DNA of 64,000 nucleotides from Abditibacterium sp. GTDB taxonomy: Bacteria; Armatimonadota; Abditibacteriia; Abditibacteriales; Abditibacteriaceae. Location of the stretch: contig CBDASK010000003.1 in the NCBI GenBank assembly GCA_965199495.1, positions 1,504,001-1,568,000 of the forward strand, in the 5' to 3' direction. A program made the translations under genes and the position numbers. Below, in pieces: positions 3 through 63,924 of this stretch; the stretch's first letter is position 1, and the number at the start of each line of letters is the position of its first letter. The notes under the pieces are model-generated. The model had not been told where the DNA came from. It saw only the letters and a program-made list of their open reading frames with translations, and did no database searches.

Positions 3-1424
3 TTGAGGCGCGGTGGTTTGACTGGCGGCAACGAAATCACGACGATTGTCGCCGACGATGCGGACGGCGCCGATGCCGTTTATTTCGGCACGTTAGGCGG
101 CGCTTCGGTTTATCGTTACACCGCCAAGCGCGGCGTCGAAGAGTATTGGAAGGCGACGACAGGCGCGATTTACACGCTCAAAATGAATAACGGCAGCCTC
201 TACGCGGGTTGCGATGGCGGCGATGTGTGGAAACTCAACGGCGAAATTGGCGACGTGCGCGCCGCCCGCGTTTTGGACGCGACGCAGCCGCAGGTTCTGG
301 CTCTGGCGGCGCAGGGCCAGACGCTTTATGCCGCGACTGCCAACAACGCGGCGGTTTACAAAATCGGCGCCGACGAGGGCGATAAAAGCAACGAATACGA
401 TTCGGATATTTTCGACGCCAAAAGCGTGGTGCGCTGGGGCGCGCTCAACACACTGGGCGAGGGCGTGACGATTCAAACGCGCAGCGGAAACACGGTTGAC
501 CCCGACGCGACTTGGAGCGATTGGGCGGCGCTCGACAACGGAAAAATCGCCTCGCCCGCCGGTCGCTACTTGCAATATCGCGCCAAACTCGAAGACGGCG
601 GCAAGCTCGCGCGCGTCGAAGCGCTCTATCGCGCGCCCAACCGCGCGCCCAAAGTGACGCTGACTTTGCCCAAAGGCGGCGAAACAATCCGCGCCGACAA
701 AACTTTGACATGGACAGGCACCGATCCCGACAGCGATGCGCTCCGTTACGCGGTTTCGATTGCGGGCGCCGACGGAAAGTTCGCGCCCGTCCAAGATCCG
801 ACGCCGACCGACGCCAAAGTTGATCTCGACACCACGAAATACAAAGATGGCGTCTACCGTTTGCAGGTGCGCGCCTCGGACGCCGCGCGCAACCCCGAAG
901 ACCCGATGAGCGACACGGCGACTTCGCTGCCCTTCACCATTGATAACACGCCGCCGACCTTCGCGAGCTTGAGCGTGGTCAAAGCCGATAACGGCTGGAA
1001 GTTAGAGGGCGTGGCGGGGGACGCGACTTCGCCGTTGGCGGGCGCCGAATGGCGCATCAAGCCCGACGAACCCAAAAAGCCGGACGCAACCAAGAAAGAC
1101 GACAAAAAAGCGGGCGCCAAAGTCGAAACCGTCGCGGTCACGACCGGCGATTCGACCGACGACGCGACGGATGACGCCACAGACGACACGACCAAAACCG
1201 ACGATGCCAAAGCGAAAGCCGACGCCAAAGCCGCAGCCACGGCGCGTAGCGCGTGGCAGGCCGTCGGCGCGGCGGACGGTTTGTTCGACAGCAAAAGCGA
1301 GACGTTAATCGCGATTTTGGATTCGGATTTCGCGCCCGCTCCACTCCAAAGCGGCCTGGAAATCGAAGTGCGTTTGCGCGATGCGGCGGGCAATTCGACG
1401 ATCAAAACGTTGAAGTTGCCGTAG
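3..1424 (+). CDS. 5'-truncated secreted-type protein with beta-propeller-like repeats and Ig/FN3-like C-terminal domains
   Basis: 473-aa ORF open at window edge; repeated 'lYAG/ATxxxxxVYK' blades; 'DPDSDALRYAV...DGVYRLQVRASD...FTIDNTPP' Ig-like pattern. Confidence 0.6.
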   Translation: MRRGGLTGGNEITTIVADDADGADAVYFGTLGGASVYRYTAKRGVEEYWKATTGAIYTLKMNNGSLYAGCDGGDVWKLNGEIGDVRAARVLDATQPQVLALAAQGQTLYAATANNAAVYKIGADEGDKSNEYDSDIFDAKSVVRWGALNTLGEGVTIQTRSGNTVDPDATWSDWAALDNGKIASPAGRYLQYRAKLEDGGKLARVEALYRAPNRAPKVTLTLPKGGETIRADKTLTWTGTDPDSDALRYAVSIAGADGKFAPVQDPTPTDAKVDLDTTKYKDGVYRLQVRASDAARNPEDPMSDTATSLPFTIDNTPPTFASLSVVKADNGWKLEGVAGDATSPLAGAEWRIKPDEPKKPDATKKDDKKAGAKVETVAVTTGDSTDDATDDATDDTTKTDDAKAKADAKAAATARSAWQAVGAADGLFDSKSETLIAILDSDFAPAPLQSGLEIEVRLRDAAGNSTIKTLKLP

Positions 1425-1508
1425 GGATTTTGGGTTGAGAAAGGCGAGGGTTTGCGGGATGGTTGGCTGTCGGCGTAACGGCACTGGATTAAGGTTTCGG
1501 CAACTCGC

Positions 1509-1665
1509 ACTCACACCCCCACTGCCTTCGGCATCTCCCCCTCCGAGAGGGGAAGAATGCCTCATCAGGTTGAAGAGCTTTCTTGGTCAATGTGGAGCTG
1601 CGAAGTAACTGAGGCATTCTTCCCCTCTCGGAGGGGGAGATGCCGAAGGCAGTGGGGGTGTGAGT
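1509..1665. repeat. Long inverted repeat (REP/REPIN-like hairpin, family B)
   Basis: Perfect 56-bp arms 1509-1564 and 1610-1665 around a 45-bp spacer. Confidence 0.9.
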
Positions 1666-1689
1666 TCAAGTCGCTTCCAACTTAACCCA

Positions 1690-2070
1690 ATGCCACTGCC
1701 AATGCTCAAACGTCTACTGAAAATCGCGCTCATCGTATGCGCCATATTTTCGCTACCGATAATCGCGATAGCAACGTTCGTCTGGTATAGCGATTATCGC
1801 GAAGCGCGCAACACTTTCACGATAGAGCAGGTCTGCTCGATCAAAACGGGCGAAAACATAGACGAGGCGCTGAAGAAATTGGGTGATCCGGTCGAATATC
1901 ACACCTACAATTTCAGCAACGTTTACAGTGGGCAATATCGCAATGTGCGGTGCGGTTACTTCGTTGAAATTCCTTATACGCAGGATAAAGGCATAGTTGA
2001 AGAGATATTTTGGGGACGAGGCCGCACCCAAACTCTGGCACAAAGCGGCGTCTGTGGTAAATCTCGATGA
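1690..2070 (+). CDS. Hypothetical membrane-anchored protein
   Basis: ORF with N-terminal hydrophobic helix; start moved out of the repeat (ATG 1690 or 1702); lower GC. Confidence 0.55.
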   Translation: MPLPMLKRLLKIALIVCAIFSLPIIAIATFVWYSDYREARNTFTIEQVCSIKTGENIDEALKKLGDPVEYHTYNFSNVYSGQYRNVRCGYFVEIPYTQDKGIVEEIFWGRGRTQTLAQSGVCGKSR

Positions 2071-2203
2071 AAATATAAGCCGCAATTTGGAAATTTCCGT
2101 GCCATAACAATTTCACATTTCCCCCTAACTTTAAAACGGAATTGAGCGGCACTTTCGCGGGTTTAACGCGTCCAAATTCACGGTAAAAACAACGGCCCAT
2201 CCC

Positions 2204-3115
2204 ATGACTTCTGGTAGCCCCACTTCGCAAATCGAGGCGCCCGCGCCCGACACCACAGAATCGCGGCCTGCGGGCGCGACTTCGGCGCCGCCGCGCGCGC
2301 GCATTTCCGCCGCTCCTTCGCGCGTGGTGAAGTGCTATCTTTCTATCGTCGTGCCCGCCTACAACGAGCAAGACCGTTTGCCTGACACACTTACTGCCAT
2401 CGCCGATTACTTGAAAATGCGCGATTTTTCGCACGAATTGCTGGTCGTTGACGACGGTTCGCGCGATTCGACGCGCGATGTCGTGCGCGAATTCGCCGCC
2501 TCGCGCTCGTGGGTTCGCCTGGTGCAATACGACGACGAACACGGCCACGCCTTGAACAGAGGCAAAGGTTTCGCGGTGCGCGCGGGCATCGAAGCCGCCG
2601 TTGGTCGCGACATTCTGTTTTCCGACGCCGATCTCAGCACGCCCATCGAAGATATGGAGCGATTATTGCCGCCGATTTCGCGCGGCGTGTGCGACGTGGC
2701 TATTGCTTCACGCGCGCTGCCCGAATCGAATTTGGACGTGCATCAACCCGCGCACCGCGAATGGATGGGCCGCACTTTTAACCGTTTGGTGCAAGCCATC
2801 GCGGTGCCCGGCGTCGTGGATACGCAATGCGGTTTTAAAGCATTTCGTGGCGATGTCGCCAAACGATTATTCGCGATGGCGCAAATTGATGGCTTCGGTT
2901 TCGATCCCGAAATTCTGTTTCTGGCGCACAAATACGGTTACACCATTCGCGAAATTCCCGTGACGTGGCGCCATCGCGATAACTCGCGCGTTAATCCGAT
3001 CACGGCGCCGTTTTCGATGTTTAAAGAACTTTTGGAAATTCGCTGGAACGATGCGCGCGGCCTGTATGACGAAGAGCCGAAAGTGCAAAAGCAACCCGAA
3101 CCGTCCGAGCGTTAG
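2204..3115 (+). CDS. Glycosyltransferase family 2 (dolichyl-phosphate beta-glucosyltransferase-like)
   Basis: LSIVVPAYNE, VVDDGSRD, GKGFAV, FSDADLS, DTQCGFK motifs. Confidence 0.92.
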   Translation: MTSGSPTSQIEAPAPDTTESRPAGATSAPPRARISAAPSRVVKCYLSIVVPAYNEQDRLPDTLTAIADYLKMRDFSHELLVVDDGSRDSTRDVVREFAASRSWVRLVQYDDEHGHALNRGKGFAVRAGIEAAVGRDILFSDADLSTPIEDMERLLPPISRGVCDVAIASRALPESNLDVHQPAHREWMGRTFNRLVQAIAVPGVVDTQCGFKAFRGDVAKRLFAMAQIDGFGFDPEILFLAHKYGYTIREIPVTWRHRDNSRVNPITAPFSMFKELLEIRWNDARGLYDEEPKVQKQPEPSER

Positions 3116-3248
3116 GGGCACGAAAACTTTGTGGGGCACACGAGGGCACAGAACTTGAGCGACGAAACCGGAAATTTACGCGGTTTTATCGTGCTGAGTT
3201 CTGTGCCCTTTGTTGTTTTTATCGCGAAATTTTATTGCCCTCCTTTTC

Positions 3249-4457
3249 ATGCTTTCAAAAATTCAGTCCGTCATTCAAGAAACTTTGCCGTCGAGTCCGG
3301 CTTTCAAGGAGTTCACCGACAACGAAAAATCGGCGGGCGTTTTCCTGATGATCTGTTCGATTGTCGCGTTGATTTTAGCCAACTCGCCGCTATCCGCGAC
3401 TTATCTGCATTGGTGGAAAATCTATCTCGGCCCACCCGGTTTATCGTTGAGTTTGTCGCACTGGATTAACGATGGTTTGATGGCGATTTTCTTTATGCTG
3501 ATTGGCCTGGAACTCAAGCGCGAGGTTTATGTCGGCGAACTTTCCGACGTCAAAAACGCGACCTTGCCGATTATCGCCGCGCTGGGCGGCATTTCGGTTC
3601 CGGCGCTAATTCACTTCGCTTTCAATCGCGGTTTGCCCACGCAAAGCGGCTTCGCCATTCCGATGGCGACCGACATCGCTTTCGTTTTGAGCGTCTTGGC
3701 ACTGGCTGGAAACCGCGTGCCGGTTTCGCTGAAAATTTTCTTGACCGCCATCGCCGTCATTGACGATTTGTGCGCCATTATCGTAATCGCGCTCTTTTAC
3801 ACCGCCGATTTGAACCTGACGTATCTCGCGATGGCGGGCGGCGTGGCTGTTCTTTTGGTCATCCTCAACAGAATGCGCGTGATGAGCTTAATTCCCTATC
3901 TATTATTGGGCGCGTTGATGTGGTTTTTCATGCTCGAATCGGGCATTCACGCCACAATCGCGGGCGTAATTCTGGCGTTTGCCTTTCCGTTTCGCTCCAC
4001 AGTTGAGGGCCAAAAATCGCCGATGGCGCGTTTAGAAAGCGCGCTGCACAAACCCGTGGCTTTTATCATTCTGCCGATATTCGCTTTCGCCAACGCGGGC
4101 GTTGTCATCGGCGGCGGCGCCGTTGCCGGTCTGCTTGCGCCCAACGGATTGGGCATCATGGTGGGATTAATTTTGGGCAAGTTCGTCGGCGTTGCTCTGG
4201 CGAGTTTTTTTGCCGTCAAAGTCGGTTTGGGCGCGTTGCCCAACGATATTCACTGGAAGCACGTTGCGGGCGCCGCGTGGCTGACAGGTATCGGTTTCAC
4301 GATGTCCATTTTCATTACCAATTTGGCGTTTGAAACGCAGGGCGATTTGATCAACAGCTCCAAAATGGCGATTTTGCTTTCTTCGATTATCGCCGGTGTC
4401 ATCGGTTATCTTTGGCTCATCACCGTCAGCAAATCATCAACAAAATCGCAGTCGTGA
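3249..4457 (+). CDS. nhaA: Na+/H+ antiporter NhaA
   Basis: WINDGLMAIFF, AIPMATDIAF, AVIDDL, GIGFTMSIF motifs; ATG 3249 preferred over TTG 3210. Confidence 0.95.
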   Translation: MLSKIQSVIQETLPSSPAFKEFTDNEKSAGVFLMICSIVALILANSPLSATYLHWWKIYLGPPGLSLSLSHWINDGLMAIFFMLIGLELKREVYVGELSDVKNATLPIIAALGGISVPALIHFAFNRGLPTQSGFAIPMATDIAFVLSVLALAGNRVPVSLKIFLTAIAVIDDLCAIIVIALFYTADLNLTYLAMAGGVAVLLVILNRMRVMSLIPYLLLGALMWFFMLESGIHATIAGVILAFAFPFRSTVEGQKSPMARLESALHKPVAFIILPIFAFANAGVVIGGGAVAGLLAPNGLGIMVGLILGKFVGVALASFFAVKVGLGALPNDIHWKHVAGAAWLTGIGFTMSIFITNLAFETQGDLINSSKMAILLSSIIAGVIGYLWLITVSKSSTKSQS

Positions 4458-4573
4458 ATCAATAAATGGGTTTCAACCCATGATTTCGGCTTCAAGATCA
4501 AAGGGGTTCCGCACGCTACGAGTAACTTGTTCGCATCAGAATTTCCGGCTAAAATGAGATTGAGAATCAATTT

Positions 4574-4897
4574 ATGAAGAGTCGAATTATGTATATCGAA
4601 CGCAAAGCGGGCAATCTTACCGGGACAGCTCGCATCGGTCGCGTCACGTTTTCCAAAACCGGCAAAACACTTTATTATCGCGGTAAGAAGTTGCAAAGCC
4701 TCAAAGGCAATGGCTTCAAAGCGAATTTTTACGATTTGGCAACCGGCGAAGATTTCTGGATTTCTGGCTGCAAAAAAGATGGTACAGATCGGCTCTATGG
4801 CGAACGCTTGCCCATCAAAATAGACGATGATGTGCGAGAAGAGTATTGGCTAAAAATCCGTGAGTTACCCGCAAAAGTTGAAGATTACGTTGCATAA
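4574..4897 (+). CDS. Small hypothetical protein
   Basis: Clean 107-aa ATG ORF ending at a terminator (ARIGRVTFSKTGKTLYY...FWISGCKKDGTDRLY). Confidence 0.7.
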   Translation: MKSRIMYIERKAGNLTGTARIGRVTFSKTGKTLYYRGKKLQSLKGNGFKANFYDLATGEDFWISGCKKDGTDRLYGERLPIKIDDDVREEYWLKIRELPAKVEDYVA

Positions 4898-4939
4898 ATA
4901 AAAGCGCCGCTTCACCAAAATGGTGAAGCGGCGTTTTAT
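4898..4939. terminator. Bidirectional intrinsic terminator
   Basis: ataaaagcgccgcttcacc-aaaat-ggtgaagcggcgttttat between convergent genes. Confidence 0.8.
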
Positions 4940-4951
4940 CGTCAGCCGAGC

Positions 4952-5554
4952 TTATTTATCGTTGCCGACGCGCATGGCTTTGTCGAGGATGTGATCGATC
5001 ATGCCGTAGGCTTTGGCCTCTTCGGCGCCCATCCATTTATCGCGTTCGACATCGGCTTCGATGCGTTCAATCGGCTGGCCGGTGTGATGGGCCATGATCG
5101 AGTTGAGCGTGCTTTTGAGCGTCAGCATTTCGCGTAAATTGATTTCGGCGTCGGTGGCCTGACCTTCAAAACCGCCCGACGGCTGGTGAATCATCACGCG
5201 CGCGTTGGGCGTCGCGTAACGCTTGCCCTCGTCGCCCGCGCACAGCAAAAGCGCGCCATAAGACGCGGCGTAACCCGTGCAAATCGTGGCGATGGGACAG
5301 GAAACGGTTTGCATCGTGTCGTAAATCGCGTTGCCCGCGTAAATGGAGCCACCGGGCGAGTTGATGTAGATGTCAATATCGCGTTCGGGGTCTTCTTTTT
5401 CCAAGAACAGAAGTTGCGCCTGCACGACCGTTGCGAGCGCGTCGGTGACTGGCTCGTGAATGAAAATGATGCGCTCTTTGAGCAAGCGGTCGAAGATGCT
5501 CATGCCGCGCTCGCCGCGCGGGGTGTCTTCGACGACGTAAGGAACTAATGGCAT
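4952..5554 (-). CDS. clpP: ATP-dependent Clp protease proteolytic subunit
   Basis: YINSPGG, AASYGA (catalytic Ser), MIHQP, ERDKWM motifs. Confidence 0.97.
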
Positions 5555-5704
5555 AGTGGTTTTTGGTTTGGGCGTTGGAACGCGAAAGAAAATTGGAAAA
5601 CTCGCTTTCGCAAACGCAAAGAGACGCCGTTTGGCGCCTCTTCACAATCTCCCTATTCCTACGCTTGCGCCCCCGCGACGTTCCGCGTGGCTGCTGACAA
5701 GCAC

Positions 5705-7288
5705 CTACACGCTGGTGTCGGTTTTGGCGTCCTCGACCGGGCCGCCTTCGGGTTCGACAACGCTGCGATCCGTGTCATCAACCGGCACATCTTCGCTCGC
5801 GGCATCGGAAGTTGCGTCCTCGCTTTCGGCGACGAACGTAGTATCGGCGCCCGCGTCTTCGGCTTCGTCCTCCATCGCGTCCAATTCGTCCATCGCGTCG
5901 GCGATGTCAGCATCTTCGAGCGCTTCGTTGGCTTCGTCGTCCATCGCGGGCATATCCATCGAAACGGCGTTGCCCTGCTCGTCGGTGATGGCGGACAAAT
6001 CCACCAAATAATCGATCGCTTTGCGCTGCAAAATCGAGGTGCGCACATTAGCCACCGGCACGTTCTGCACCAATTCTTCGGGCGGCGTGTTGGTGACATT
6101 GGCCATCAACAGATAATGCTGCTCCAACTCTTCGCGCGAAACCGGGAACTGCTGGCCTTCGGCGATTTGATCCAAAACCAACTCGGTTTTGAGTTCGCCC
6201 GCCAATTCTTCTTTCAAGTCGTCTTCGAGCTGTTCCTGCGTCGAATTGATCGCGCTCAAATAGGCTTCCATCGTGGCGCCATTTTGTCCCAATTCCTGCG
6301 TGATGCCTTCCAAACGCTCCTGCAAACGCAGGTCAACCAGAGCCGATGGCACATCGAAATTGGTGCGATCCACGATCTGCTCGACCAAGGCTTCGCGCAC
6401 CTCTTTGCGCGCCTCACGCTCGCCGGTGGCTTGCAGATACTGGCGCAGGTTATTTTTCAAATCTTCGACGTTCTCGCTCTGACGAATCTGGGCGAACTCA
6501 TCGGTCAATTCCGGCACGACTTTCTCTTTGATCGCCGTGACTTTGACCTCGAACTCGGCTTCTTTGCCCTGCAAATCGGCGTCGGGAAATTCGTCCGGGT
6601 AGGTCATGGTGAAACGCTTGGTTTCGTCCAGATTGATGCCGACCAATTGGTCGTCAATCGCTGGCACAAAACCGCTTTCGCCCACGACGAAACCGCGCAG
6701 GTTGGCGGGTTCTTCGCTTCTGGGTTCGCCATCCAAAAAGACCTGCACATCGGCGAACAAAACGTCGCCCATTTCGACCGCGCGTTCGGGCGCGTTCTTC
6801 AAATAGGCCGCTTCCTCGCGCATCTGATTCAAGGCCTGCTCAACGTCTTCGTCGGTGATTTGAATGTCGCGCTTGACGGCGGCCAAACCTTCGGTCGAAC
6901 CCAGTTCGATTTCGGGACGCGCGATGACGCGGGCCACGAAGGTGAACGGCTTCTCGTTGTCGAAGGCGTCGAAATCAATTTCGTCCACTTCGGCGCGTTC
7001 GAGCGGAATCACTTTTTCCTGTTCGAGCGCGGCCTGATAGGCGGCGCCGACGATCTGGTCGGCGACTTCTTGGGCGATGGCTTCGTCGCCGACGTTGCGG
7101 CGCACGATGCCCGCAGGAATCGAACCGGGACGAAAGCCGGGCACGCGAATGCGCTTGGACATCTCTTTCACGACGCGCGCGCGCGCATCGCTGACGGCGC
7201 TGGGCGCGACTTCGATGTTGAGGGTAATGACGCCGCCCTCGCCGGGCGCACGGGTGACATTTTGCAGTTGGATGGGGTTATTTTGCAC
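5705..7288 (-). CDS. tig: Trigger factor with acidic C-terminal tail
   Basis: VPGFRPG ribosome-binding loop, FKBP-like middle (TYPDEF...LQGKEAEF), upstream of clpP; GTG start. Confidence 0.93.
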   Translation of the reverse strand: MQNNPIQLQNVTRAPGEGGVITLNIEVAPSAVSDARARVVKEMSKRIRVPGFRPGSIPAGIVRRNVGDEAIAQEVADQIVGAAYQAALEQEKVIPLERAEVDEIDFDAFDNEKPFTFVARVIARPEIELGSTEGLAAVKRDIQITDEDVEQALNQMREEAAYLKNAPERAVEMGDVLFADVQVFLDGEPRSEEPANLRGFVVGESGFVPAIDDQLVGINLDETKRFTMTYPDEFPDADLQGKEAEFEVKVTAIKEKVVPELTDEFAQIRQSENVEDLKNNLRQYLQATGEREARKEVREALVEQIVDRTNFDVPSALVDLRLQERLEGITQELGQNGATMEAYLSAINSTQEQLEDDLKEELAGELKTELVLDQIAEGQQFPVSREELEQHYLLMANVTNTPPEELVQNVPVANVRTSILQRKAIDYLVDLSAITDEQGNAVSMDMPAMDDEANEALEDADIADAMDELDAMEDEAEDAGADTTFVAESEDATSDAASEDVPVDDTDRSVVEPEGGPVEDAKTDTSV

Positions 7289-7777: not shown

Positions 7778-9130
7778 ATGTCCCTCTCCGAATCAAACGA
7801 TTTTGCTTCCAATTCGCTCCAGCCGCCCGACGAAGAGACGAAGGTTTTGCGCGCGCGTTTGCGTCAGCGCGAGCGCCAAATCGAAGCGATTCGTTCGGTT
7901 TCCGAAACCCTGTTTTCGCACGATTCCATCGAAGCGATGCTGGAGGAAACATTAACTTTAGCGATGGAGACGCTTGACGCGGGCGTGGGCGCGGTTCTGC
8001 TCTACGAGGCCGAACGCGACGCGCTGGTTTTTCGCTGCGCTTTTGGCCCCGACGCGCACCAACTTCTCAACCAAACAATCGGCACAAATCAGGGCATCGC
8101 CGGGCGCGTATTTTGTAGCGGCCAGCCCAACCTCACCCCCGATGCGTCCAGCGAACCGGATTTCAACAGCGAACTTCACCACGCGATTGCGACGCGCACG
8201 CGCTCTATCGTGACCGTGCCGCTCAAGCGGCGCGGCGCGGCGCCCATCGGCGTGATGCAGGCGCTCAGTTTCGAGACGGCCTACGACAATTACGATTTGG
8301 AAACCCTCGAAATTATCGCCAGCCAAGCCGCCATCGCCATCGAAGATTCCGAGCGCGAACAACAGACCCGCAAAGCCGCGATGGTCTCGTTCATCGGCGA
8401 TTTGTCGCACGACATCAAAAATATGCTGACGCCGATTCAAACCGGCATGTGGACGCTCGACCCGATGCTGCGCCAGATGTTTGACGAACTCGAAACTGCG
8501 GCCAAGGATTTGACGCCAGAGCAACGCCTGGAAATCGAAAAAGCGACGCACCTCACGCGCGGCGAATACGAGTGGATGCTGCAAAACGCGCTCGATGCCG
8601 CCGACCGCGTGCAAAACCGCACCAAAGAAATCGCCGACGCCGTCAAGGGTATTTCGTCGCCGCCACGCTTCGAGGCTGGCGACTTCAACGACGCCTGCGA
8701 AGAGGCCGTGGCTGCCCTGCGCCTCGTCGCCCACGACGCGCAGGTTGAACTGGAACTCGAACTCGATTCCAACTTGCCGATGGTGCAGTTCGACCGCAAA
8801 CAGATTGATACCGCGCTTTATAATCTGATTAACAACGCGATTCCCGAAACGCCTGAAGATGGCACCATCCTAATTCGCACGCGCGCTTTTATCCCGGAGC
8901 CGGATAAATTTACCGTCGAAGTCGCCGATACCGGCAAGGGGATGCCAGCTAATGTGCGCGAAAAACTTTTCACCGACGAAGCGATTTCGACCAAAATTGG
9001 CGGCACCGGTCTGGGCACGCGCATCGTCGGCGACATCGTCAGACGCCATCACGGCACAATTAGCGTCGAAAGCGTCGAGGGCCAAGGCACGACGTTTACG
9101 TTGATTTTGCCGATGAAACAGGGTGGATAA
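7778..9130 (+). CDS. GAF-domain sensor histidine kinase (cytoplasmic, orphan)
   Basis: GAF region (QGIAGRV...TRSIVTVPL), H-box LSHDIKNMLTP, N-box NLINNA, G1 DTGKGM, G2 GGTGLG. Confidence 0.92.
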   Translation: MSLSESNDFASNSLQPPDEETKVLRARLRQRERQIEAIRSVSETLFSHDSIEAMLEETLTLAMETLDAGVGAVLLYEAERDALVFRCAFGPDAHQLLNQTIGTNQGIAGRVFCSGQPNLTPDASSEPDFNSELHHAIATRTRSIVTVPLKRRGAAPIGVMQALSFETAYDNYDLETLEIIASQAAIAIEDSEREQQTRKAAMVSFIGDLSHDIKNMLTPIQTGMWTLDPMLRQMFDELETAAKDLTPEQRLEIEKATHLTRGEYEWMLQNALDAADRVQNRTKEIADAVKGISSPPRFEAGDFNDACEEAVAALRLVAHDAQVELELELDSNLPMVQFDRKQIDTALYNLINNAIPETPEDGTILIRTRAFIPEPDKFTVEVADTGKGMPANVREKLFTDEAISTKIGGTGLGTRIVGDIVRRHHGTISVESVEGQGTTFTLILPMKQGG

Positions 9131-9163: not shown

Positions 9164-9324
9164 GGCTCATTTGTCATTTCGAGCGAGGCACGAGCCGAGA
9201 AATCTTGCGGCCCCGCGCCAGCGGAGATAACGCTAAATCTTCAACTGTCGAAATTTCAGACTTCCGCTGGCGCGGGGCCGTAAGATTTCTCGGCTCGTGC
9301 CTCGCTCGAAATGACAAATGAGCC
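9164..9324. repeat. REP/REPIN-like hairpin family A (TGTCAT...AGAAATCT)
   Basis: ~62-bp arms 9164-9225 and 9263-9324 with one G-T mismatch. Confidence 0.9.
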
Positions 9325-9361
9325 ATAATGCGCGAGTCTTCTGAACCATAAACCAGATCGC

Positions 9362-11127: not shown

Positions 11128-11311
11128 TAGGATTTACGCATTTGGCCCACGTTTGTCATTTCGAGCGGAGCCGAGAAATCTTACGCCCGCGCGGCAGCGC
11201 AGTTCGAGCGTTTTCCACATTCAAAGCTTTCTGCGACTTCCGCTGGCGCGGGGCCGAAAGATTTCTCGGCTTCGCTCGAAATGACAGGCGAGCGCAACTG
11301 AGTAAATCCTA
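11128..11311. repeat. Family A hairpin nested within an outer 13-bp inverted repeat (MITE-like composite)
   Basis: Outer TAGGATTTACGCA (11128-11140) / TGAGTAAATCCTA (11299-11311); inner tgtcatttcgagcggagccgagaaatctt...aagatttctcggcttcgctcgaaatgaca. Confidence 0.85.
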
Positions 11312-19298: not shown

Positions 19299-19308
19299 AA
19301 ATTCCATT

Positions 19309-19420
19309 AGCCACAAAGGACACAAAGAAGAACGAAGAAAATAAAAAGTAGAGGAACTAATTTACATAGTTTTGCTTTTACAAATTATTTTTTTCGTGCT
19401 TCTTTGTGTCCTTTGTGGCT
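19309..19420. repeat. Hairpin family C (AGCCACA..GGACACA)
   Basis: agccacaaaggacacaaagaag ... cttctttgtgtcctttgtggct. Confidence 0.85.
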
Positions 19421-19429
19421 TGACAAATC

Positions 19430-38230: not shown

Positions 38231-39358
38231 TCAAACGGCAACGGGACTGGGAAAATTAGCAAAGTTCGGCCACTTTTGACGGCAGGACAAGCGCGGAATC
38301 AGGCGCATCGGCACCGCGCGATGTTGGCGCTGGGGCGGCAGTTGATCGTGTGCGCGGCTCCACACCAAATCGGCGGCTTCGCGGCCAATCTCGTCCCACG
38401 GCAGGTGCAGCGAAGTGATGTTGTGCCGCCGCGCGGCGGGCGAATTATCGAACGCCACAATGGCGGGCCACTGCGCGCGTGGCACATTGGCGGCAAGCAA
38501 GCCGTCCATGAAACCCAGCGCGACCGCGTCATTGGCAGCCACGACGCCGCGAATGTCGCCGCGCCCCAGCAATTCGCCCGCGAATCCGCGTCCGATGGCG
38601 CGCGCACCCGCCGCGTCATCGTTGGCTTCTTCACGCGGACAAAACGCCATCGCGTGATAGGGCAAACCCGCTTCGGCCAGCGCGCGCGCCCAGCCGTTTT
38701 CGCGCTCGCTCGACCATTCTTTGGCGCTGCTGCCCGACGTGGCTGCATGAACGCCCAGATAAGCGATGCTCCTGAAACCGCGCTCGATCAGATGATGGGT
38801 GGCGCGATAGCCGCCATCTTCGTTATCGAAAGACAACAGATCGAGCTGCTCGCCTGCGCGCCAGTTGCCGCCGATGCGCGCCAGAGGCACGCTCTCATCG
38901 AACAAACCTCGCAGCGAAACCTCGTCGAGCCGCTCTTCGCGCACCAACAAAAACGCGCCGTCAATCTTCAAGTCGCGCCACGAATCGTTGGCCTGCGACA
39001 GCTCCAACGACAAAGCCACGCCGCCGCGCGCCGCCACACGCGAATCGAAACCGATCTGAATCTCCGTCGCGTAAGGATGCGGCGACGCGTCATCAATCAA
39101 AAACACCTGACACGACGCGGCTTCGGCTTCGCCCTGCCCCGCGAACGAACCGACTTTGGGAACCGCGCGAAACAAACCTTCGGCCTCCACCATCTGCAAC
39201 GCCCGATGCGCGATATAACGCGAAACTCCGTGCTGCTGGGCGACAGCACTCACGGTTGGTAACATCGCCCCCGGCTTCAAAGCGCCGCCGACCAACAAAG
39301 CGCGCAGCGATTGCTCTACACCTTGCTGTTGCTCGCGAGTTTCCTGTCGGCTGGCCAT
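38231..39358 (-). CDS. GntR-HTH / LacI-type sugar-binding transcriptional regulator
   Basis: LKPGAMLPTV..AQQHGVSR..AHRAL; DNEDGGYRATHHLI, AANDAVA, IVAFDN; ATG 39358. Confidence 0.88.
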   Translation of the reverse strand: MASRQETREQQQGVEQSLRALLVGGALKPGAMLPTVSAVAQQHGVSRYIAHRALQMVEAEGLFRAVPKVGSFAGQGEAEAASCQVFLIDDASPHPYATEIQIGFDSRVAARGGVALSLELSQANDSWRDLKIDGAFLLVREERLDEVSLRGLFDESVPLARIGGNWRAGEQLDLLSFDNEDGGYRATHHLIERGFRSIAYLGVHAATSGSSAKEWSSERENGWARALAEAGLPYHAMAFCPREEANDDAAGARAIGRGFAGELLGRGDIRGVVAANDAVALGFMDGLLAANVPRAQWPAIVAFDNSPAARRHNITSLHLPWDEIGREAADLVWSRAHDQLPPQRQHRAVPMRLIPRLSCRQKWPNFANFPSPVAV

Positions 39359-46705: not shown

Positions 46706-47311
46706 TTAACTGCCGAAGCGTTCGCTGACTTTATCCCAATTGACGGTGTTCCACCACGCTTCGAGATATTTTGGGCGCGCGTTCTGATAATTCAGATAAT
46801 ACGCGTGTTCCCACACGTCGTTGCCCAGAATCGGCGTCAGGCCCTGCGTGAGCGGGCTATCTTGATTGGGCGTCGAAATCACCTGCAAATTGCCCGACGC
46901 GTCTTTGACCAGCCACGCCCAGCCCGAACCGAACTGGCCCGCGCCCGCCGCGTTGAATTTGGTCTTGAGTTCGTCCAGCGAACCAAACGTCTGGTCAATG
47001 GCGTCTTTGAGCGCCCCGCTGGGCTGCGAAGCGCCGCCGGGCGTCATGGTTTCCCAAAACATGGTGTGATTGATATGTCCGCCACCGTTGTTGCGAATAG
47101 CGGTTTTAACCGAATCGGGCGCGCTGTCGAGATTGGTAATCAAATCTTCGATAGATTTATTGGCCAGTTCGGGCGCCTTTTCGAGGGCGGCGTTGAGATT
47201 ATTGACGTAAGCCGCGTGATGCTTGTCGTGATGAATTTTCATGGTTTCTTCATCAATATGCGGTTCGAGCGCGTCATACGCGTAGGGCAGAGCGGGAAGT
47301 TCAAAAGCCAT
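46706..47311 (-). CDS. sodA: Fe/Mn superoxide dismutase (Mn-type signature)
   Basis: [47 protein letters not shown]. Confidence 0.96.
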
Positions 47312-57882: not shown

Positions 57883-58149
57883 TTACCAAATATCGCTTTC
57901 TTCGGCATCGTATTTCGCTTGCAACGCGCGCTTTTCGCGCGCGGTTTCTGCCCTTTGTCGCCGCGCATCAACAAAGATAAAAGGCAGGAAAACGATCAAG
58001 CTAAGTAAAGGCATTAGCAACAAAAGTTTTGGCGCTCCAGTTATTAAAGGTGTGACCAACATGGACAGCACGGTCGAAATTGCCATCGGCCACAGAAAAA
58101 ACAGCGTTCTTTTTTTGGTTTTCTCCCACGCAATCGAATTATTTTTCAT
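57883..58149 (-). CDS. Small two-TM hypothetical protein
   Basis: GGAGGA SD, ATG, two hydrophobic helices. Confidence 0.65.
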   Translation of the reverse strand: MKNNSIAWEKTKKRTLFFLWPMAISTVLSMLVTPLITGAPKLLLLMPLLSLIVFLPFIFVDARRQRAETAREKRALQAKYDAEESDIW

Positions 58150-58268
58150 TATTCCTCCATTTCAACGGGCGCCTTTGAAATTCAAAACATATGGAACTGA
58201 TGCAGAATTTCGCTCAAATTAGCGTTTCGCTATTGCCAATGCGCGCGCGAACTGCCAATATAAAGCGG

Positions 58269-59279
58269 ATGTTGCAAGCGATGAAAGCGAAAATTGACTG
58301 GTTTTTGACCGGCATGATCGCCGCGATAATTCTGGCGTGCCTGTTCCCGACGCCGGGCGCCAAAAGCGGATTTTTACATCCCGATATTTTGGTCAAAGTC
58401 GGCGTCGCGCTGATATTTTTCCTGCACGGCGTGGCGTTGTCGTTCGATAAGCTCAAAGCCGGAACGCTGCGTTGGCCGCTTCACCTCATCGTGCAAGTCG
58501 GCACGTTCGTCTTTTTTCCCCTTCTCGGCTGGCTGCTGCTCCAATTATTCGGGCGCTTTTTGCCCGCCGATTTGAACACCGGTTTTTTCTATTTGTGCGC
58601 TTTGCCTTCGACGGTTTCGTCGTCGGTCGCGATGACGGCGGCGGCGCGCGGCAACGTGCCAGTCGCGGTTTTCAACGCGACATTATCGAGCTTAATCGGC
58701 ATTTTCCTGACGCCTTTATGGATCGGTTTGGTCATCGGCACCCAAGGTGGATCGTTGCCCCTGGGCAAAGTCATTCTCGATTTGGTATTGTGGCTTTTGC
58801 TACCGCTCGTCGTCGGCCAACTGTCGCGTCCGTTTTTGGGCGCGTGGGCGCAAGCGCATAAATCTTTCATCAACAATGTGGATAAAGGCACGATTTTGCT
58901 GCTGGTCTACACCTCTTTTTGCGATTCGGTCGTGGACGGCGTGTGGACAAAAAATGGCGCCAACGTTTTGCTACCCGCATTCGTCGGCGCGATGGTTTTG
59001 TTCGTCATCGTTTTCTCTGCAATGCGCGCGTTTTGCGCCAAAGCGCATATTGCGCCCGACGATAGCGCCGCCGTAATTTTTTGCGGCACGAAGAAAACGT
59101 TGGCATCGGGCGTGCCGATGGCGCATTTGATTTTCGGCGCCAATCCGGGTTTAGGTCTGATTCTGTTGCCAATTTTGATTTATCATCCGTTGCAACTGGC
59201 GATTTGCGGCTGGCTGGCGTCGCGCTGGGCGCGCCGCGCCGATAGGCGTGAAGCGGCGTTGGCCGAAAGCGTAGTTTAA
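58269..59279 (+). CDS. Bile acid:sodium symporter family protein
   Basis: IFFLHG, CALPSTVSSSVAMT..ARGNV, FCGTKKTLASG, YHPLQL; exact start uncertain. Confidence 0.9.
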   Translation: MLQAMKAKIDWFLTGMIAAIILACLFPTPGAKSGFLHPDILVKVGVALIFFLHGVALSFDKLKAGTLRWPLHLIVQVGTFVFFPLLGWLLLQLFGRFLPADLNTGFFYLCALPSTVSSSVAMTAAARGNVPVAVFNATLSSLIGIFLTPLWIGLVIGTQGGSLPLGKVILDLVLWLLLPLVVGQLSRPFLGAWAQAHKSFINNVDKGTILLLVYTSFCDSVVDGVWTKNGANVLLPAFVGAMVLFVIVFSAMRAFCAKAHIAPDDSAAVIFCGTKKTLASGVPMAHLIFGANPGLGLILLPILIYHPLQLAICGWLASRWARRADRREAALAESVV

Positions 59280-59881
59280 GTGGCGAAGTCGTAATCATAA
59301 TTCCGCTCGCGCGGCGTCACCAATCGCGCGAAATCGCCGCGCGCGTTTTCGCGCTGCGTCGTCACAAACGCGCTGATGTCCTCGATTTCGACAATCTCCT
59401 CGCGCGCATAACGGCGCAACGTTTCGCCGCGAAGTCCCAGCTGAACCGCGCGCCGTTCGCACTTGGCGCCGCTTGGGTCGTGATCGGGATCCCATTGCAG
59501 TCGCACCTCCGATGCAGCCACGGCGGCTTGCCAGTCGGCGTGGCTGCTGTAATTCGAGGCGTCGAAACTCGATGGAACAGCGGCTTTTAAGACTTCATTG
59601 AAGAACGCGCGCCGGATGCGAATGGCGAGCGTGACTTCCTGATTTTCTTTGGTGCCCCAGCCGCACCGATACATCATCCACAGAAAATTCGGCTTGAACC
59701 AACTCATGCGGTTTAAACTCCAATCGCCGCCCAAAGTGCCTTCGCGTGCTGCGAAGTGGCCGATGCTCGCATTGTAAGCCTGATAAACAATGACCGATTC
59801 GTCGTCGAATTGGGCGAGAATATGTTGGCCCTCGCGCGGCCAAATAGAGAGTTGCGATAGATAAGATTCAAAATTAATCAT
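59276..59881 (-). CDS. DUF4291-family protein
   Basis: VYQAY, RMSWFKPNFLWMMYRCGW, VRLQWDPDH, AVQLGL. Confidence 0.85.
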   Translation of the reverse strand: MINFESYLSQLSIWPREGQHILAQFDDESVIVYQAYNASIGHFAAREGTLGGDWSLNRMSWFKPNFLWMMYRCGWGTKENQEVTLAIRIRRAFFNEVLKAAVPSSFDASNYSSHADWQAAVAASEVRLQWDPDHDPSGAKCERRAVQLGLRGETLRRYAREEIVEIEDISAFVTTQRENARGDFARLVTPRERNYDYDFAT

Positions 59882-59882
59882 T

Positions 59883-60263
59883 ATGTTTTACGAAGAACTC
59901 AAATACGATGACAACGGTTTAATTGCCGGTGTTTTTCAGGATTACCAGACCGGCGAAGTTTTAACTTTAGCATGGTTGAATAAGGAAGCCGTTCAGCAAA
60001 TGTGGGAAACCAAACGCGGCACGGTTTATCGCCGCTCGAAAGGGCGCGTGATGATCAAAGGCGAAGTTTCGGGCAACATCCAAATCGTCCACGAAATTCT
60101 GGCCGATTGCGACCGTGACGCTTTGGTCATCAAAATCGAGCAAGTCGGCGGCGCGGCCTGCCACAAAGGTTATCGCTCGTGCTTCTTCGATCAAGTGCAA
60201 GAAGACGGCGCGATGGAAGCGCAGGGCGAACCGTTATTCGATCCGGCGAAGGTTTACGGATAA
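59883..60263 (+). CDS. hisI: Phosphoribosyl-AMP cyclohydrolase
   Basis: KGEVSGN, DCDRDAL, ACHKGYRSCF. Confidence 0.93.
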   Translation: MFYEELKYDDNGLIAGVFQDYQTGEVLTLAWLNKEAVQQMWETKRGTVYRRSKGRVMIKGEVSGNIQIVHEILADCDRDALVIKIEQVGGAACHKGYRSCFFDQVQEDGAMEAQGEPLFDPAKVYG

Positions 60264-60265
60264 AA

Positions 60266-60414
60266 TTAGCCACAGAGATCACAGAGAACACGCAGAGGGA
60301 CACAGAGAGAACGAAGAAAATGAAAAGCAAAACCATAAAAATGGTTCGTTTCCATTTCATTTTCTTCGTTCTCTCTGTGTCCCTCTGCGTGTTCTCTGTG
60401 ATCTCTGTGGCTAA
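60266..60414. repeat. Family C hairpin, ~60-bp perfect arms
   Basis: ttagccacagagatcacagagaacacgcagagggacacagagagaacgaagaaaatgaaa and its exact reverse complement; overlaps the pepF stop. Confidence 0.92.
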
Positions 60415-62192
60415 ACCAAACCTTCAAATTCGTCAATTTGAGCGCGAATCACATCCAAACTCGCTGTCCAAAAATCGGGCGTCGTCACGTCAATGCCGAA
60501 CTTCGCGGCCAGAGTTTTGGCGTCGGCCATGCCGCATTCGCTCAGAAATTCGTCGTATTGCGCGCGGAACGTTTCCGGTTCGCGCTGATAGATCGCGTAA
60601 AGTCCCAGACCAAATAACAATCCGAATGTATACGGATAATTATAGAAAGTTGGGCCATAATAATGGCCTTTAACCGCCCACATATACGGATGATATGACG
60701 CCATATCATCGCCATAAGTTTGGTGTTGGGCATCCAACATGAGCGAACAAAATTCGCTTTCGGTTTGCTCGCGTTGTTCGCGCGCGGCAAAGACACTCTT
60801 CTCGAATAAAAATCGCGAATGTATATCTACGACGACCTGCAAACTACCACTTAACGAATTGTCCAACAACGCGATGCGCTCTTGCGGTTCGGCGTCTTTA
60901 ATGGCGGCTTGCAGCGCCAGAGTTTCGCAGAAAATGCTGGCGGTTTCGGCCAAAGTCATCGGGATTTGGCATTGCAACGGCGTGCGATTTTCCAAGCACA
61001 GGTTGTGGTAACCGTGTCCCAATTCGTGAGCGACGGTCGAAACGGCGTTATACGAACCGTCGAAGTTGGTCAAAATCCGCGAAACGCCGGGCAAAATGCC
61101 CGTGCAGTAAGCGCCACCGACTTTGCCCATGCGCGGCGGTGCGTCCATCCAATTTTCGTCGTAGGCCCGATCCGAAAACTCGGCCATTTTTGGCGAATAC
61201 TCGCCAAAATTTTCGCTCAGAAACTTTTGCGAAGCCACCCAACTCCACTCGCTTTTCGATTGACCGACGGGCGCGCCCAAATCGAACCATTCCAGTTTCT
61301 CGACGCCCAGAGCGCGCGCTTTGGCTTTCATATAGCGCTGAAAATCGGGAAACGAAGCCACACACGCGCTCTGCATCGCATCGAGCGTGGCCGCGTCAAT
61401 GCTGTTGCGAATCAATGTCGGCTCGACATCGCTATTGTAGCCACGGCGGCTTCGTAGTTCGCGTTGAAACCCTTTGATGCCGTTCAGAGCGCCCGCCAAA
61501 GGCATCGAAACGGTTTGCCAACTCGCGATTTCGGCGACGTAAGCGGCCTCGCGCGTTTCGCGATTCGGATCGTGCGCGAGGGCGCGAATCGAACTCATCG
61601 GCAACGCCTTTTTTTGCCCCTCGATTTCAACATCCACCGTTAAAAGCGCCGTCATATTGCCGTGCAATTTAGCCCAGCCGCCCAATCCCATCGGTTGCAG
61701 CGACGACGCCAGATTCTCTTCGGCGGCGCTCATCTGGTGCGCGGCCAATTGCGCGGCGCGGCGCACCCAAAACTCATGATCGCGCGCGACTTGCGATTGC
61801 GATAACAACGCTTCGATGTCGCTCGAACCGACCCACGCGACCAATCGCGTTTCGAGTTGGCCTAAAACAATTGTGCGCGTTTCCATCTCGGATTCGCGCG
61901 CCTTGGCGAGTTCGTCGCTCGCGTCAGTCGTCACGAAACAGCCGATATAACTGCCCAGCGTTTCCAATCGTTCGAGCAAGTGATTGAGCGAGCCGACGAT
62001 TTCTTCAAATTGGCCGACGAAAGCCAAGTCAACGGTGCCGGTTTCGCGACGAGCGACCCCGACTTGCTCAAAAAGCGCCGAGAGTTCGCCGATGGAATCG
62101 AGGGCGCTTTCAAATTCGGTGTTAAATTCGGGCGAAGTCAATGACGGAAAAATCGGCGTCATGTCCCAACGCGGCAAGGTTTGATTTTGCAT
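60411..62192 (-). CDS. M3B oligoendopeptidase (PepF-like)
   Basis: PRWDM, GKVGGAYC, AHELGHGYH, LAETAS, FYNYPYTFG; ATG 62192. Confidence 0.93.
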   Translation of the reverse strand: MQNQTLPRWDMTPIFPSLTSPEFNTEFESALDSIGELSALFEQVGVARRETGTVDLAFVGQFEEIVGSLNHLLERLETLGSYIGCFVTTDASDELAKARESEMETRTIVLGQLETRLVAWVGSSDIEALLSQSQVARDHEFWVRRAAQLAAHQMSAAEENLASSLQPMGLGGWAKLHGNMTALLTVDVEIEGQKKALPMSSIRALAHDPNRETREAAYVAEIASWQTVSMPLAGALNGIKGFQRELRSRRGYNSDVEPTLIRNSIDAATLDAMQSACVASFPDFQRYMKAKARALGVEKLEWFDLGAPVGQSKSEWSWVASQKFLSENFGEYSPKMAEFSDRAYDENWMDAPPRMGKVGGAYCTGILPGVSRILTNFDGSYNAVSTVAHELGHGYHNLCLENRTPLQCQIPMTLAETASIFCETLALQAAIKDAEPQERIALLDNSLSGSLQVVVDIHSRFLFEKSVFAAREQREQTESEFCSLMLDAQHQTYGDDMASYHPYMWAVKGHYYGPTFYNYPYTFGLLFGLGLYAIYQREPETFRAQYDEFLSECGMADAKTLAAKFGIDVTTPDFWTASLDVIRAQIDEFEGLV

Positions 62193-62239
62193 AAGCAAGA
62201 AATTAAAGTTGCAAGGTTGCCGCCGATAGTGCGGTAGCT

Positions 62240-62719
62240 TCAATTATAGACGCTCCACGCGTTGAGCCAGAGGCGCCCCGTCTTTTTGTCCGCCGCAAAA
62301 TTGCACAAAATAAACCACGGATGTTCGTCGTTCTTATCTTTTTCGACCATAAAAGAACCGCATTGCGCGCTCGGCGGAACAGTCGAAAACAATCCAGTTC
62401 CCTTTGTTAAAGCCGTTTGACTGATGGGAATAAGCGTGAATCTCGCGTGTTTTTTGAACTGCGCCAGAATTACGGATATTTGTTGTGGCGTCGTTTGTAA
62501 TACCATCGAATCGTGATTATCGGTCAAAGTGCCGCTACTTTTATGCTCGACAACTTGAATGTTTTGCGCGTTGACATCGATAAAATCGAGCGGGTTGCTT
62601 GTAGCGGCGCAACCGCGCGCCACGAAAAAACGAGCATTACTCCAACGCCGCTCAGGGCCAGCCATTTGAAAAATTTTTTCATTTGCCTCTATTATTTCAC
62701 GTTGCCGCATCCACGCCAA
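62240..62719 (-). CDS. Hypothetical protein (possibly 5'-truncated)
   Basis: 159-aa lower-GC ORF, weak start. Confidence 0.4.
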   Translation of the reverse strand: MAWMRQREIIEANEKIFQMAGPERRWSNARFFVARGCAATSNPLDFIDVNAQNIQVVEHKSSGTLTDNHDSMVLQTTPQQISVILAQFKKHARFTLIPISQTALTKGTGLFSTVPPSAQCGSFMVEKDKNDEHPWFILCNFAADKKTGRLWLNAWSVYN

Positions 62720-62790
62720 ATTTCCGAGTGCCCACCAACGCGCACTCAGGTGCGTTACGCGCGACTATTTTGTTGGCAAGCTCTAATCCA

Positions 62791-63924
62791 ATGCGCTCTC
62801 GCAACTCCAAAAAACGCGTTCGATTATTGACGTTTGGTATCGCTCTAATTATCGGCGCCTTCGGTTTGTGGGCACAACAGCGCTGGCTCCACGATTTACG
62901 CGCCGTCCAAATCGGCGGCGACCCAACCGACGTGGCTGCACTTGCGCGCTGGCCGTGGCCCAATGCGAAAAGGGTTAATCCAACGCGCGGCGTCACACAT
63001 TGGCGCGACGATTCATCGGGCGACGGCACGGTTTGCGAACTCATCGAATTCGATTTTCAAGCCAACCCGAATTTGCGTTTCGCGCTGTTCGATCAAGACA
63101 GCGACGACGCCAAGCCTTGGGACAATCATTGTTTGTATTGGCCACGCGGCGCCGCGCAGATGACGCGACAACTCAACGACAACAATCAGCGCGTTGTCGC
63201 GTTGTGGAATGGTGCATTTTTCGGTTATCACGGCGGCTCGAAATGGGCGAATAAAGACGCGTTTCACGTTTCGCCCGTTGTCGTTGACGGCGTAGTTCAC
63301 GATTTTGGCGCCAATCACCGCTGGAGTTTCGGCGTCAAATATCGCAACGGTAAACCGACATTTTCAACGTTTCACGAGCCATCGAACGCGACGTTGAAAG
63401 AGAACTATGATTTTGCCAGTGGCGGTGTGCAATGTTTGATTCGCGATAAAAAACCGCTGGGTTTACGCGCTTATGGTTTGCCGCCGTTGACGCAGCCGGT
63501 GAATTCGACCGACAAAGAGGCCGGGCACATTCCCGATTTTGATTGGATGAAATCGAGTCGCGCCAGCATCGCATGGAACAAAGACAGTTCAAAAATGTGG
63601 CTCTTGTTCATCAAAGAAGGCGATTCCGAAGGTGCCAGCATAGCGGCGCTTAAAATCGGCGGCGGAATGTTAGGTTTGCAACTGCGCGGCGGCTGGAGCG
63701 TGGCCGATGTGCGTAGATTCTGGCTTTCCCGAAACGTGTGGGGCGCCATCAACTCGGACGCGGGCGACGTGGCTCAACTCAGCGTCTTGCGGCCCGACCG
63801 TAATTACGATTTAGTTCCGTCGCGTCAGGCCAGCTCGCAAATGCGATTGACGTTTGGGTCAGATTTTACCAATGCGCCCGCAGGCGGCGCGCTGATGTAT
63901 TTTTATGTCGCAGAACAGACTTAA
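62791..63924 (+). CDS. Phosphodiester glycosidase (NAGPA-like) family protein
   Basis: N-terminal TM; WNGAFF, SRASIAW, AINSDAG resemble the family NGgFF / RTAIG / NLDGG motifs. Confidence 0.6.
   Translation: MRSRNSKKRVRLLTFGIALIIGAFGLWAQQRWLHDLRAVQIGGDPTDVAALARWPWPNAKRVNPTRGVTHWRDDSSGDGTVCELIEFDFQANPNLRFALFDQDSDDAKPWDNHCLYWPRGAAQMTRQLNDNNQRVVALWNGAFFGYHGGSKWANKDAFHVSPVVVDGVVHDFGANHRWSFGVKYRNGKPTFSTFHEPSNATLKENYDFASGGVQCLIRDKKPLGLRAYGLPPLTQPVNSTDKEAGHIPDFDWMKSSRASIAWNKDSSKMWLLFIKEGDSEGASIAALKIGGGMLGLQLRGGWSVADVRRFWLSRNVWGAINSDAGDVAQLSVLRPDRNYDLVPSRQASSQMRLTFGSDFTNAPAGGALMYFYVAEQT

Follow-up and report, generated by a model that had tools for sequence, protein, structure and literature searches.

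An eight-base word, CGTGGCTG on one strand and CAGCCACG on the other, was analysed in a 64,000-nucleotide stretch of Abditibacterium sp. (assembly GCA_965199495.1, contig CBDASK010000003.1, positions 1,504,001 to 1,568,000 of the forward strand; the whole stretch is called the window) and was followed through the source genome and its relatives. The word is conserved, strand-tiled and species-variable; its copies are spaced separately on each DNA strand, the main property, which a preliminary description of the window did not contain. It is real, strong and apparently unpublished, and we judge it, with somewhat better than even confidence, to be an uptake-sequence-type self tag for natural transformation. 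The preliminary description had proposed an undescribed genome-wide signal, which holds, and of the four options that it offered (uptake-like, Chi-like, methyltransferase-linked or nucleoid-protein site) the uptake-like one fits best.

An exact count of 37 copies was obtained for the window, 19 of CGTGGCTG and 18 of CAGCCACG, compared with a chance mean of 2.03±1.34 (maximum 6) in 100 dinucleotide shuffles and an expectation of 3.2 under an order-3 Markov model. The earlier tally of about 37 copies with a near-even strand split and about three expected by chance was thus accurate, and all 34 coordinates listed with it are right; the copies at 4276 (plus strand), 38536 and 46910 (both minus strand) had been left out. 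Called genes hold 36 of the copies, and 29 overlap a GCT or GCA codon (9.9 and 5.8% of alanine codons, respectively), as had been described. The nearest same-strand pair is 434 bp apart. The copies are as follows (ORF, open reading frame):

1234..62938, both strands: dispersed set of 37 copies, part of the 3,091 in the genome
3842, 4276, 5686, 8707, 10379, 11851, 15492, 18351, 23738, 29481, plus strand: first ten plus-strand copies
32964, 35874, 38738, 39807, 41541, 51546, 57672, 59539, 62931, plus strand: remaining plus-strand copies
1234, 9573, 12824, 13741, 15617, 20217, 22801, 27083, 30437, minus strand: first nine minus-strand copies
34808, 37208, 38536, 42605, 46910, 48411, 53798, 56403, 59515, minus strand: remaining minus-strand copies
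8707..8714, plus strand: typical sense-frame copy, GCC GTG GCT GCC (Ala-Val-Ala-Ala), the frame of 20 of the 37 copies
1234..1241, minus strand: typical antisense-frame copy, GCA GCC ACG GCG (Ala-Ala-Thr-Ala), the frame of 12 of the 37
4276..4283, plus strand: minor-frame copy, GCG TGG CTG (Ala-Trp-Leu), newly listed
38536..38543, minus strand: newly listed copy, 202 bp from the opposite-strand copy at 38738
46910..46917, minus strand: newly listed copy in the Ala-Trp-Leu frame, ORF 46706-47311
5686..5693, plus strand: sole copy outside called genes, between ORFs 4952-5554 and 5705-7288
59515..59546, both strands: close inverted pair within a single gene, minus copy at 59515 and plus copy at 59539

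The source genome (G000; 4.81 Mb, 95% complete, with the window on a 4.72-Mb contig) was searched together with a set of 3,703 genes called in this analysis. It contains 3,091 copies, 13 times the order-3 Markov expectation, and the word is its top 8-mer; 3,083 copies are chromosomal (1,525/1,558 by strand). The core GTGGCT is strict, single changes dropping to background, and is embedded in graded flanks, (C)GVC-GTGGCT-GCT, to which the extended consensus given earlier was a near match; the full word is written (C)GVCGTGGCTGCT, with about 3,000 copies per chromosome. In called genes, which contain 91% of the sites, 2,820 copies were found, compared with 271±16 when synonymous codons were shuffled gene by gene and 343±14 when the synonymous shuffle preserved context (8 shuffles each). 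A codon or dipeptide artefact was thereby ruled out: the codon shuffle on which the preliminary description had staked its claim left an enrichment of about 10-fold overall and of 2.4- to 25-fold across each of the six frames. The two dominant frames read GTG GCT (Val-Ala) and GCA GCC ACG (Ala-Ala-Thr), and the tripeptides VAA and AAT are raised 1.37- and 1.35-fold, an increase likewise reported for uptake sequences (PMC2817400). Since 2,945 distinct 20-base contexts occur among the 3,083 sites, the word is not a repeated element. The word was weakly enriched in 19 hand-picked repair genes (40 vs 30, p 0.045), and competence genes were not enriched (21 vs 16).

Spacing was evaluated separately for the two relative orientations. 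Same-strand pairs 61–500 bp apart numbered 134 against 442 expected, and opposite-strand pairs 421 against 442; the same-strand deficit was half recovered at about 0.7–0.9 kb and gone by about 1.5 kb. The same-strand ratio of GTGGCT (0.62) was the lowest among 1,066 frequent six-mers (median 1.17), and the next three lowest overlap it. Medium sites were suppressed equally on both sides of strong sites (31 and 28 vs 73 each; in a second comparison 92 and 104 vs 189) and on the strand of the strong site only, which excludes one-sided shielding. A transcript-level role was ruled out because the avoidance tracks the DNA strand instead of the direction of transcription: antisense–antisense pairs avoid each other (23 vs 154), as do pairs on one DNA strand that span neighbouring genes of opposite transcription (9 vs 25), and sense–sense pairs on opposite strands do not (26 vs 16). 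The same strand-specific spacing was found in the relative G011 (2 vs 13 pairs, p 0.003). In a toy model the pattern was reproduced when the benefit saturated per strand (0.58 same, 1.0 opposite), whereas saturation per duplex led to equal avoidance in both orientations (0.68/0.69); this agreement is one of consistency only.

Relatives were compared by counting CGTGGCTGCT, of which 869, 650 and 669 copies were found in G000, G004 and G011, respectively, and 2–51 in the other 38 of 41 genomes. The three form one Abditibacteriaceae-like clade (MutL tree, FastTree, support 100); the ClpP of G000 is most similar to that of Armatimonadota/Abditibacteriaceae records (72–86%). Conservation, a check that had been suggested at the outset, was determined on 84 aligned genes for G011, 217 for G004 and 11–53 for five wordless genomes. 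Sites of G000 are kept in G011 beyond the silent background: 48 of 70 were retained, compared with 41% for any 8-mer, and silent GCT was retained at 42 of 49 positions in the word and at 110 of 220 elsewhere. The residues beneath the sites are less conserved than average (0.68 vs 0.81 for G004, 0.56 vs 0.69 for G009).

The flanks vary between species. Copies in G004 read (G/C)GA-CGTGGCTG-(G/C)TGT, coding singlets included, so that a coding repeat was rejected in favour of a dialect; 92 of 266 sampled copies form inverted pairs. Other words occupy other genomes: the palindrome GAGTACTC occurs 2,650–4,077 times in four of 31 class genomes, the palindrome AAGTACTT is used in G014 and G018, and GACCGTACT has 2,633 copies in G017, half of them within 15-bp inverted pairs. 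Intergenic-type inverted pairs are present in G004, G017 and the metagenome locus L283. Of 68 metagenome loci around the pilus-tip gene described below, the 44 of at least 9 kb were inspected; such words were present in 12 of them, an asymmetric one in a single locus and palindromes in the other 11. Samples of 23–140 kb from G002, G003, G006, G009, G010, G012, G013, G015, G016, G023 and G045 yielded no strongly iterated word; the word of G017 was missed in a 23-kb sample, so other sample-based calls of this kind may be wrong.

Several further observations concern these words. The asymmetric words of L283 and L217 (G017) form inverted pairs that make 24–30-bp palindromes centred on GAATTC, and in L283 such pairs lie at gene ends and singlets within genes. 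One contig of G045 (L216) has four AAGTACTT in 5.6 kb, a word-like density that contigs L176, L177 and L222 do not share, and this assembly may be mixed. L304 has 22 copies of ATGGGCGG in 13.5 kb (17-fold), possibly a further word or a repeat.

Copies resembling REP (repetitive extragenic palindromic) elements bear on the reading that the word arose neutrally, from codon use, mutation bias or an element of this type. Part of the G004 copies look REP-like, the hairpin copies starting with GTAG, and further GTAG repeats as well as Y1 transposases are present in G000. The copies of G000, unlike REP elements, are not shared-flank intergenic hairpins; no flank complementarity or hairpin covariation was found at its sites, and a single-strand hairpin reading was dropped for want of covariation and because the folding energy was the same after flank swapping. 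Together with the survival of the enrichment under codon shuffles, the conserved silent positions, the diversity of contexts, the location in genes and the extreme same-strand ratio, this leaves the neutral reading largely refuted and its probability close to nil. Dispersed GTAG-type repeats (GTAGAGACAC, 161 copies in G000:C3), eight Y1-transposase matches and a CRISPR-like (clustered regularly interspaced short palindromic) repeat of 131 copies were recorded in G000. Three families of intergenic inverted-repeat elements of 110–170 bp lie in the window at 1500-1680, 9165-9325, 11150-11310 and 19305-19425, and are multi-copy in G004 and G011.

Along the chromosome the word density is even outside islands. 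The leading strand (split from GC skew) holds 1,596 of 3,083 copies (51.8%), a lack of replichore bias on which a replichore or lagging-strand role was rejected, and no density gradient between origin and terminus (ori/ter) was seen. The word consequently has none of the strand polarity relative to ori/ter of KOPS (FtsK orienting polar sequences) and AIMS (architecture imparting sequences), as the preliminary description had argued for KOPS from the even strand split. No period of 10–90 kb was seen, the autocorrelation being flat (0.95–1.05 from 2 to 100 kb, in 2-kb bins, a cruder method than the published one), and no distant AT-rich tracts were found around the word. Low-GC stretches account for many of the largest gaps. 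The suggested depletion in foreign islands was found: a plasmid-like contig carries two copies and a phage-like contig six, against 16 and 42 expected at chromosomal density, and despite few words both share the palindrome avoidance of the host. Palindrome avoidance in G000 is strong and broad (CGGCCG 32 vs 4,779, CTCGAG 40 vs 4,164; further GGWCC, GTAC and CTAG) and is common to wordless relatives (samples of the word-bearing G004 and of G006, G009 and G012 were inspected). Even coverage and conservation would suit a site for an abundant chromosome-organising or replication protein bound in fixed orientation, and a nucleoid role has been proposed for the cyanobacterial highly iterated palindrome HIP1 (PMC5861425). 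With no replichore bias, no ori/ter gradient, a flat autocorrelation and a duplex-level toy model that gives equal avoidance, such a site is very improbable.

The spacing test was applied to control stretches of 400 kb each, with control words that were confirmed to be abundant. The uptake signal sequence (USS) of Pasteurellaceae (G044) showed avoidance on the same strand (20/44) relative to the opposite one (34/43, p 0.03), also among singlets (15 vs 30, p 0.012). A Neisseria-type DNA uptake sequence (DUS; G093) was orientation-blind (35/62 same, 34/62 opposite). For E. coli Chi there was no avoidance (10 pairs vs 9.2; first 100 plus-strand sites of 1,008). No report on the same-strand spacing of uptake sequences was found in the papers searched.

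The word shares several features with the USS of Pasteurellaceae (PMC7811141, PMC2817400, 10.1101/2025.10.24.684340): it is non-palindromic, occurs about 0.7 times per kb on both strands, combines a strict core with graded flanks, lies mostly in genes at tolerant positions, is missing from foreign DNA and shows the same-strand avoidance of the control. It differs in its unrelated sequence and phylum, the lack of distant AT-rich tracts, a wider avoidance range, few intergenic pairs in G000, confinement to part of a genus and the absence of RecBCD. With the ComP-read DUS of Neisseriaceae (PMC3630211, PMC2397512, PMC12061091) it has in common that close relatives vary the flanks of an unchanging core, that inverted pairs occur (in G004, G017 and L283) and that the spacing is near 1 kb; unlike DUS, it is spaced by orientation, and its candidate reader is a ComZ-like protein of 1,300 residues instead of a small pilin. 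Cyanobacterial HIP1 and alternate HIPs (PMC4390886, PMC5861425, PMC13756078) are likewise hyper-abundant, conserved and patchily replaced, the GAGTACTC and AAGTACTT palindromes of the family look like HIPs, and HIP1 has also been proposed in these sources to aid transformation, its function being still debated. In contrast to HIP1, the word lacks palindromic symmetry, its graded consensus is longer, no 10–90 kb period was seen and no matching methyltransferase was identified. By analogy, it would probably work like DUS and USS while being a member of neither.

Chi sites are non-palindromic, over-represented and read on one strand, as the word would be. Within the Chi-like option of the preliminary description, classical Chi is unsupported because RecB, RecC, AddA and AddB were not found in G000 (genome 95% complete) and E. 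coli Chi has no spacing pattern; the word further differs from Chi in lacking replichore skew and in its two-sided shielding. A related proposal is that the word serves inside the cell as a strand-specific signal for repair or recombination, in place of Chi where AddAB and RecBCD are missing, perhaps with a Dna2-like nuclease-helicase as reader; its drive would be that the marked strand is spared and the unmarked allele converted. Reading of one strand would explain the spacing directly. Of the genus genomes, all 10 wordless ones encode AddA and none of the three word-bearing ones does, with the opposite distribution for the Dna2-like protein; AddA was likewise missing from every word-bearing genome tested in the family. 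For HIP1, a Chi-like effect independent of AddAB has been proposed (10.1101/2024.09.10.611283). The AddA pattern, however, is one event in one clade. AddA was found in 0 of 14 other family genomes (an AddB-size PF12705 frame in none of 10 non-genus genomes), and some of these AddAB-less genomes are wordless in samples, for which reason AddAB loss was rejected as a sufficient cause. The Dna2-like nuclease-helicase occurs in five of 31 genomes (G000, G004, G011, G016 and G017), is in pieces in G011 and is absent from the genomes with AGTACT palindromes. A translocating enzyme would be expected to shield on one side, in contrast to the two-sided suppression observed; E. coli Chi shows no avoidance, and flanks that vary by species are more usual in uptake tags. 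We consider this repair signal unlikely, although it is the main rival of the uptake tag.

Some neighbouring observations were made on recombination genes. Genes that look SbcC- and SbcD-like by sequence lie head to head with mutL (G000:C3:80384-86483), and addAB adjoins a sucB-like gene in L123, L124 and L125 (G009, G012 and G010, respectively). The hexamer AAGCGG, which we take to resemble the Chi words of Firmicutes, is 1.5–1.7-fold over-represented in G009 and G006.

As to the methyltransferase-linked option, no methyltransferase that tracks the word was found among enzymes whose specificities their sequences do not reveal; by scores and sizes, none of the N6/N4 or C5 enzymes was seen to be exclusive to the three genomes, and G014 is without a C5 enzyme. 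In its HIP1-like form this option would have a methyltransferase or nickase act at the word so as to label one strand for mismatch repair, with one site needed per strand per kb. The relatives have HIP-like palindromes, and a range of about 1 kb to both sides would suit nick-directed repair. The MutL endonuclease motif reads (N/C)QHRAHE and CPHGQP in 29 of 29 class genomes (L243–L271); the class lacks the usual first Asp of the canonical motif, so another source of nicks may be needed. This variant is present with or without words, however, and loss of the MutL nuclease was therefore rejected as the correlate of the word. A methylase beside mutS is paired with a nuclease-like gene and looks to us like part of an ordinary restriction pair, and a graded consensus of 12–17 bases with shifting flanks is unlike a methyltransferase site. 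A methylation or nick site is thus quite improbable.

For an uptake tag, the machinery is encoded. ComEC was found in 30 and ComEA in 29 of 31 class genomes, and G000 encodes DprA and a pil cluster consisting of pilB, pilT, pilC, pilD, four prepilin-type (minor pilin) genes and, after these at its end, two tandem pilus-tip genes for proteins of 1,291 and 1,328 residues (PilB/T/C/D were assigned by motif and gene order, prepilins by motif scan). ComEA was rejected as reader: it had ordinary architecture in the six sequences aligned, of 11 loci tried. The candidate reader is the second tip gene:

G000:C3:876977-880963, outside the window: tip copy B, about 1,300 residues

AlphaFold models of the two tip proteins (pLDDT, the predicted local distance difference test, 87.6 and 85.3; alignments of 77 and 72 sequences) have pilin-like predicted N-termini (Z 6.6 and 5.9). 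With predicted residues 321–1328, Thermus ComZ (PDB 6qvi) ranked first of 48,161 chains (Z 8.8, root-mean-square deviation 5.5, 177 aligned residues, 17% identity), followed by ice-binding solenoids; ice-binding proteins are also the structural neighbours reported for ComZ (PMC6561018). ComZ was not among the matches of an N-terminal 736-residue model, and searches with Foldseek, against PDB sequences and in Pfam did not place the protein in a family. The predicted structure, with middling scores, fits the ComZ pattern of a pilin-like N-terminal domain with a beta-solenoid body. Like Thermus thermophilus ComZ (PMC6561018), the tip protein is predicted to have these two parts and is encoded beside minor pilins; it differs in being 2.5 times longer, with inserted domains, and duplicated, and ComZ serves an uptake that is sequence-blind according to the same source, unlike the proposed reader.

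The tip gene is tandemly duplicated in all three word-bearing genomes (G000, G004 and G011), by a recent duplication common to them, and is single at the pil locus of the wordless genus members inspected. In the close relative L275, about as near to G000 as G004 is (PilC 92%, IleRS 91% identity to G000), the gene order is the same, with one tip copy and two words in 22 kb, a background level, compared with 13. Copy B is 85–95% identical between G000 and G011, which share a dialect, and 43–75% to G004, which has the other; copy A is only 30–79% identical between G000 and G011. On these models and identities copy B is tentatively put forward as the predicted reader of the word. The idea that a tandem tip heterodimer brings about an asymmetric word was weakened by the second copies of G017 and L283, which belong to an old paralog class that also occurs with palindromes and without words. 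In L218 (G014), several pil genes are split despite many AAGTACTT, through assembly errors or decay.

In the proposed mechanism, word-bearing fragments would be taken up and recombined more often, and mutations that create the word would therefore spread by molecular drive, as modelled for DUS and USS. A second same-strand copy within one fragment length would add nothing, whereas an opposite-strand copy would; since same-strand copies would be redundant and opposite-strand copies not, the orientation of the word must then decide which strand succeeds. The strand might be read by a polar pilus-tip receptor, predicted to be the ComZ-like copy B, or checked in single-stranded form during passage through ComEC. 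Entry is limited to one strand in H. influenzae (PMC7811141), and single-stranded gonococcal DUS shows a strand preference (cited in PMC12061091).

A number of observations weigh against the word being an uptake tag, or against this reader. Strand specificity of spacing is not family-wide: it fell short of significance in G004 (24/47 vs 31/45, p 0.18) and was not found among the singlets of G017 (7 vs 9 pairs). The USS control avoids over about 0.5 kb instead of about 1 kb (one control genome, 400 kb), and, the DUS control being orientation-blind, the best-known pilin-read tag lacks the pattern. The word is patchy within the family, unlike DUS and USS; of 86 close inverted pairs in G000, 15 are intergenic; competence genes also occur in wordless relatives; and loss of AddAB matches the distribution within the genus no less well. 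As to the tip protein, the fold match to ComZ is only middling, sequence searches with it did not retrieve ComZ, and DNA uptake by Thermus is described without apparent sequence preference (PMC6561018). The duplication is a single evolutionary event, the evidence from L275 is a 22-kb slice, and fast change of pilins is common for other reasons. Single ComZ-like genes are also found in genomes with AGTACT words and without words, and tandem or extra tip paralogs in the palindrome-bearing G022, in G045 and at other loci of G012 and G002.

Only two families have been described as taking up DNA sequence-specifically (10.1101/2025.10.24.684340). No publication was found on CGTGGCTG, CAGCCACG or GTGGCTGC, which k-mer tables in subscription papers or supplements may list; searches for GAGTACTC and AAGTACTT gave unrelated papers only, and no report of such words in this phylum was found, subscription papers lying outside the scope. 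A third independent uptake-tag system is a doubtful but conceivable extension, in which a ComZ-type tip would have gained specificity after duplication, the orientation of the tag would pick the transferred strand and each strand would be tiled, the dialects of the family would unite HIP-type palindromes with DUS and USS, and the strand rule would extend to USS. The comparison of same- with opposite-strand spacing is a cheap test, which set USS apart from DUS and Chi in the controls and implies that some step of the pathway reads one strand. How such tags originate and change can be followed as a natural experiment in a family that has both palindromic and non-palindromic words, close relatives without any and a candidate receptor gene, and transformation of these little-cultured bacteria may become easier when the word is added.

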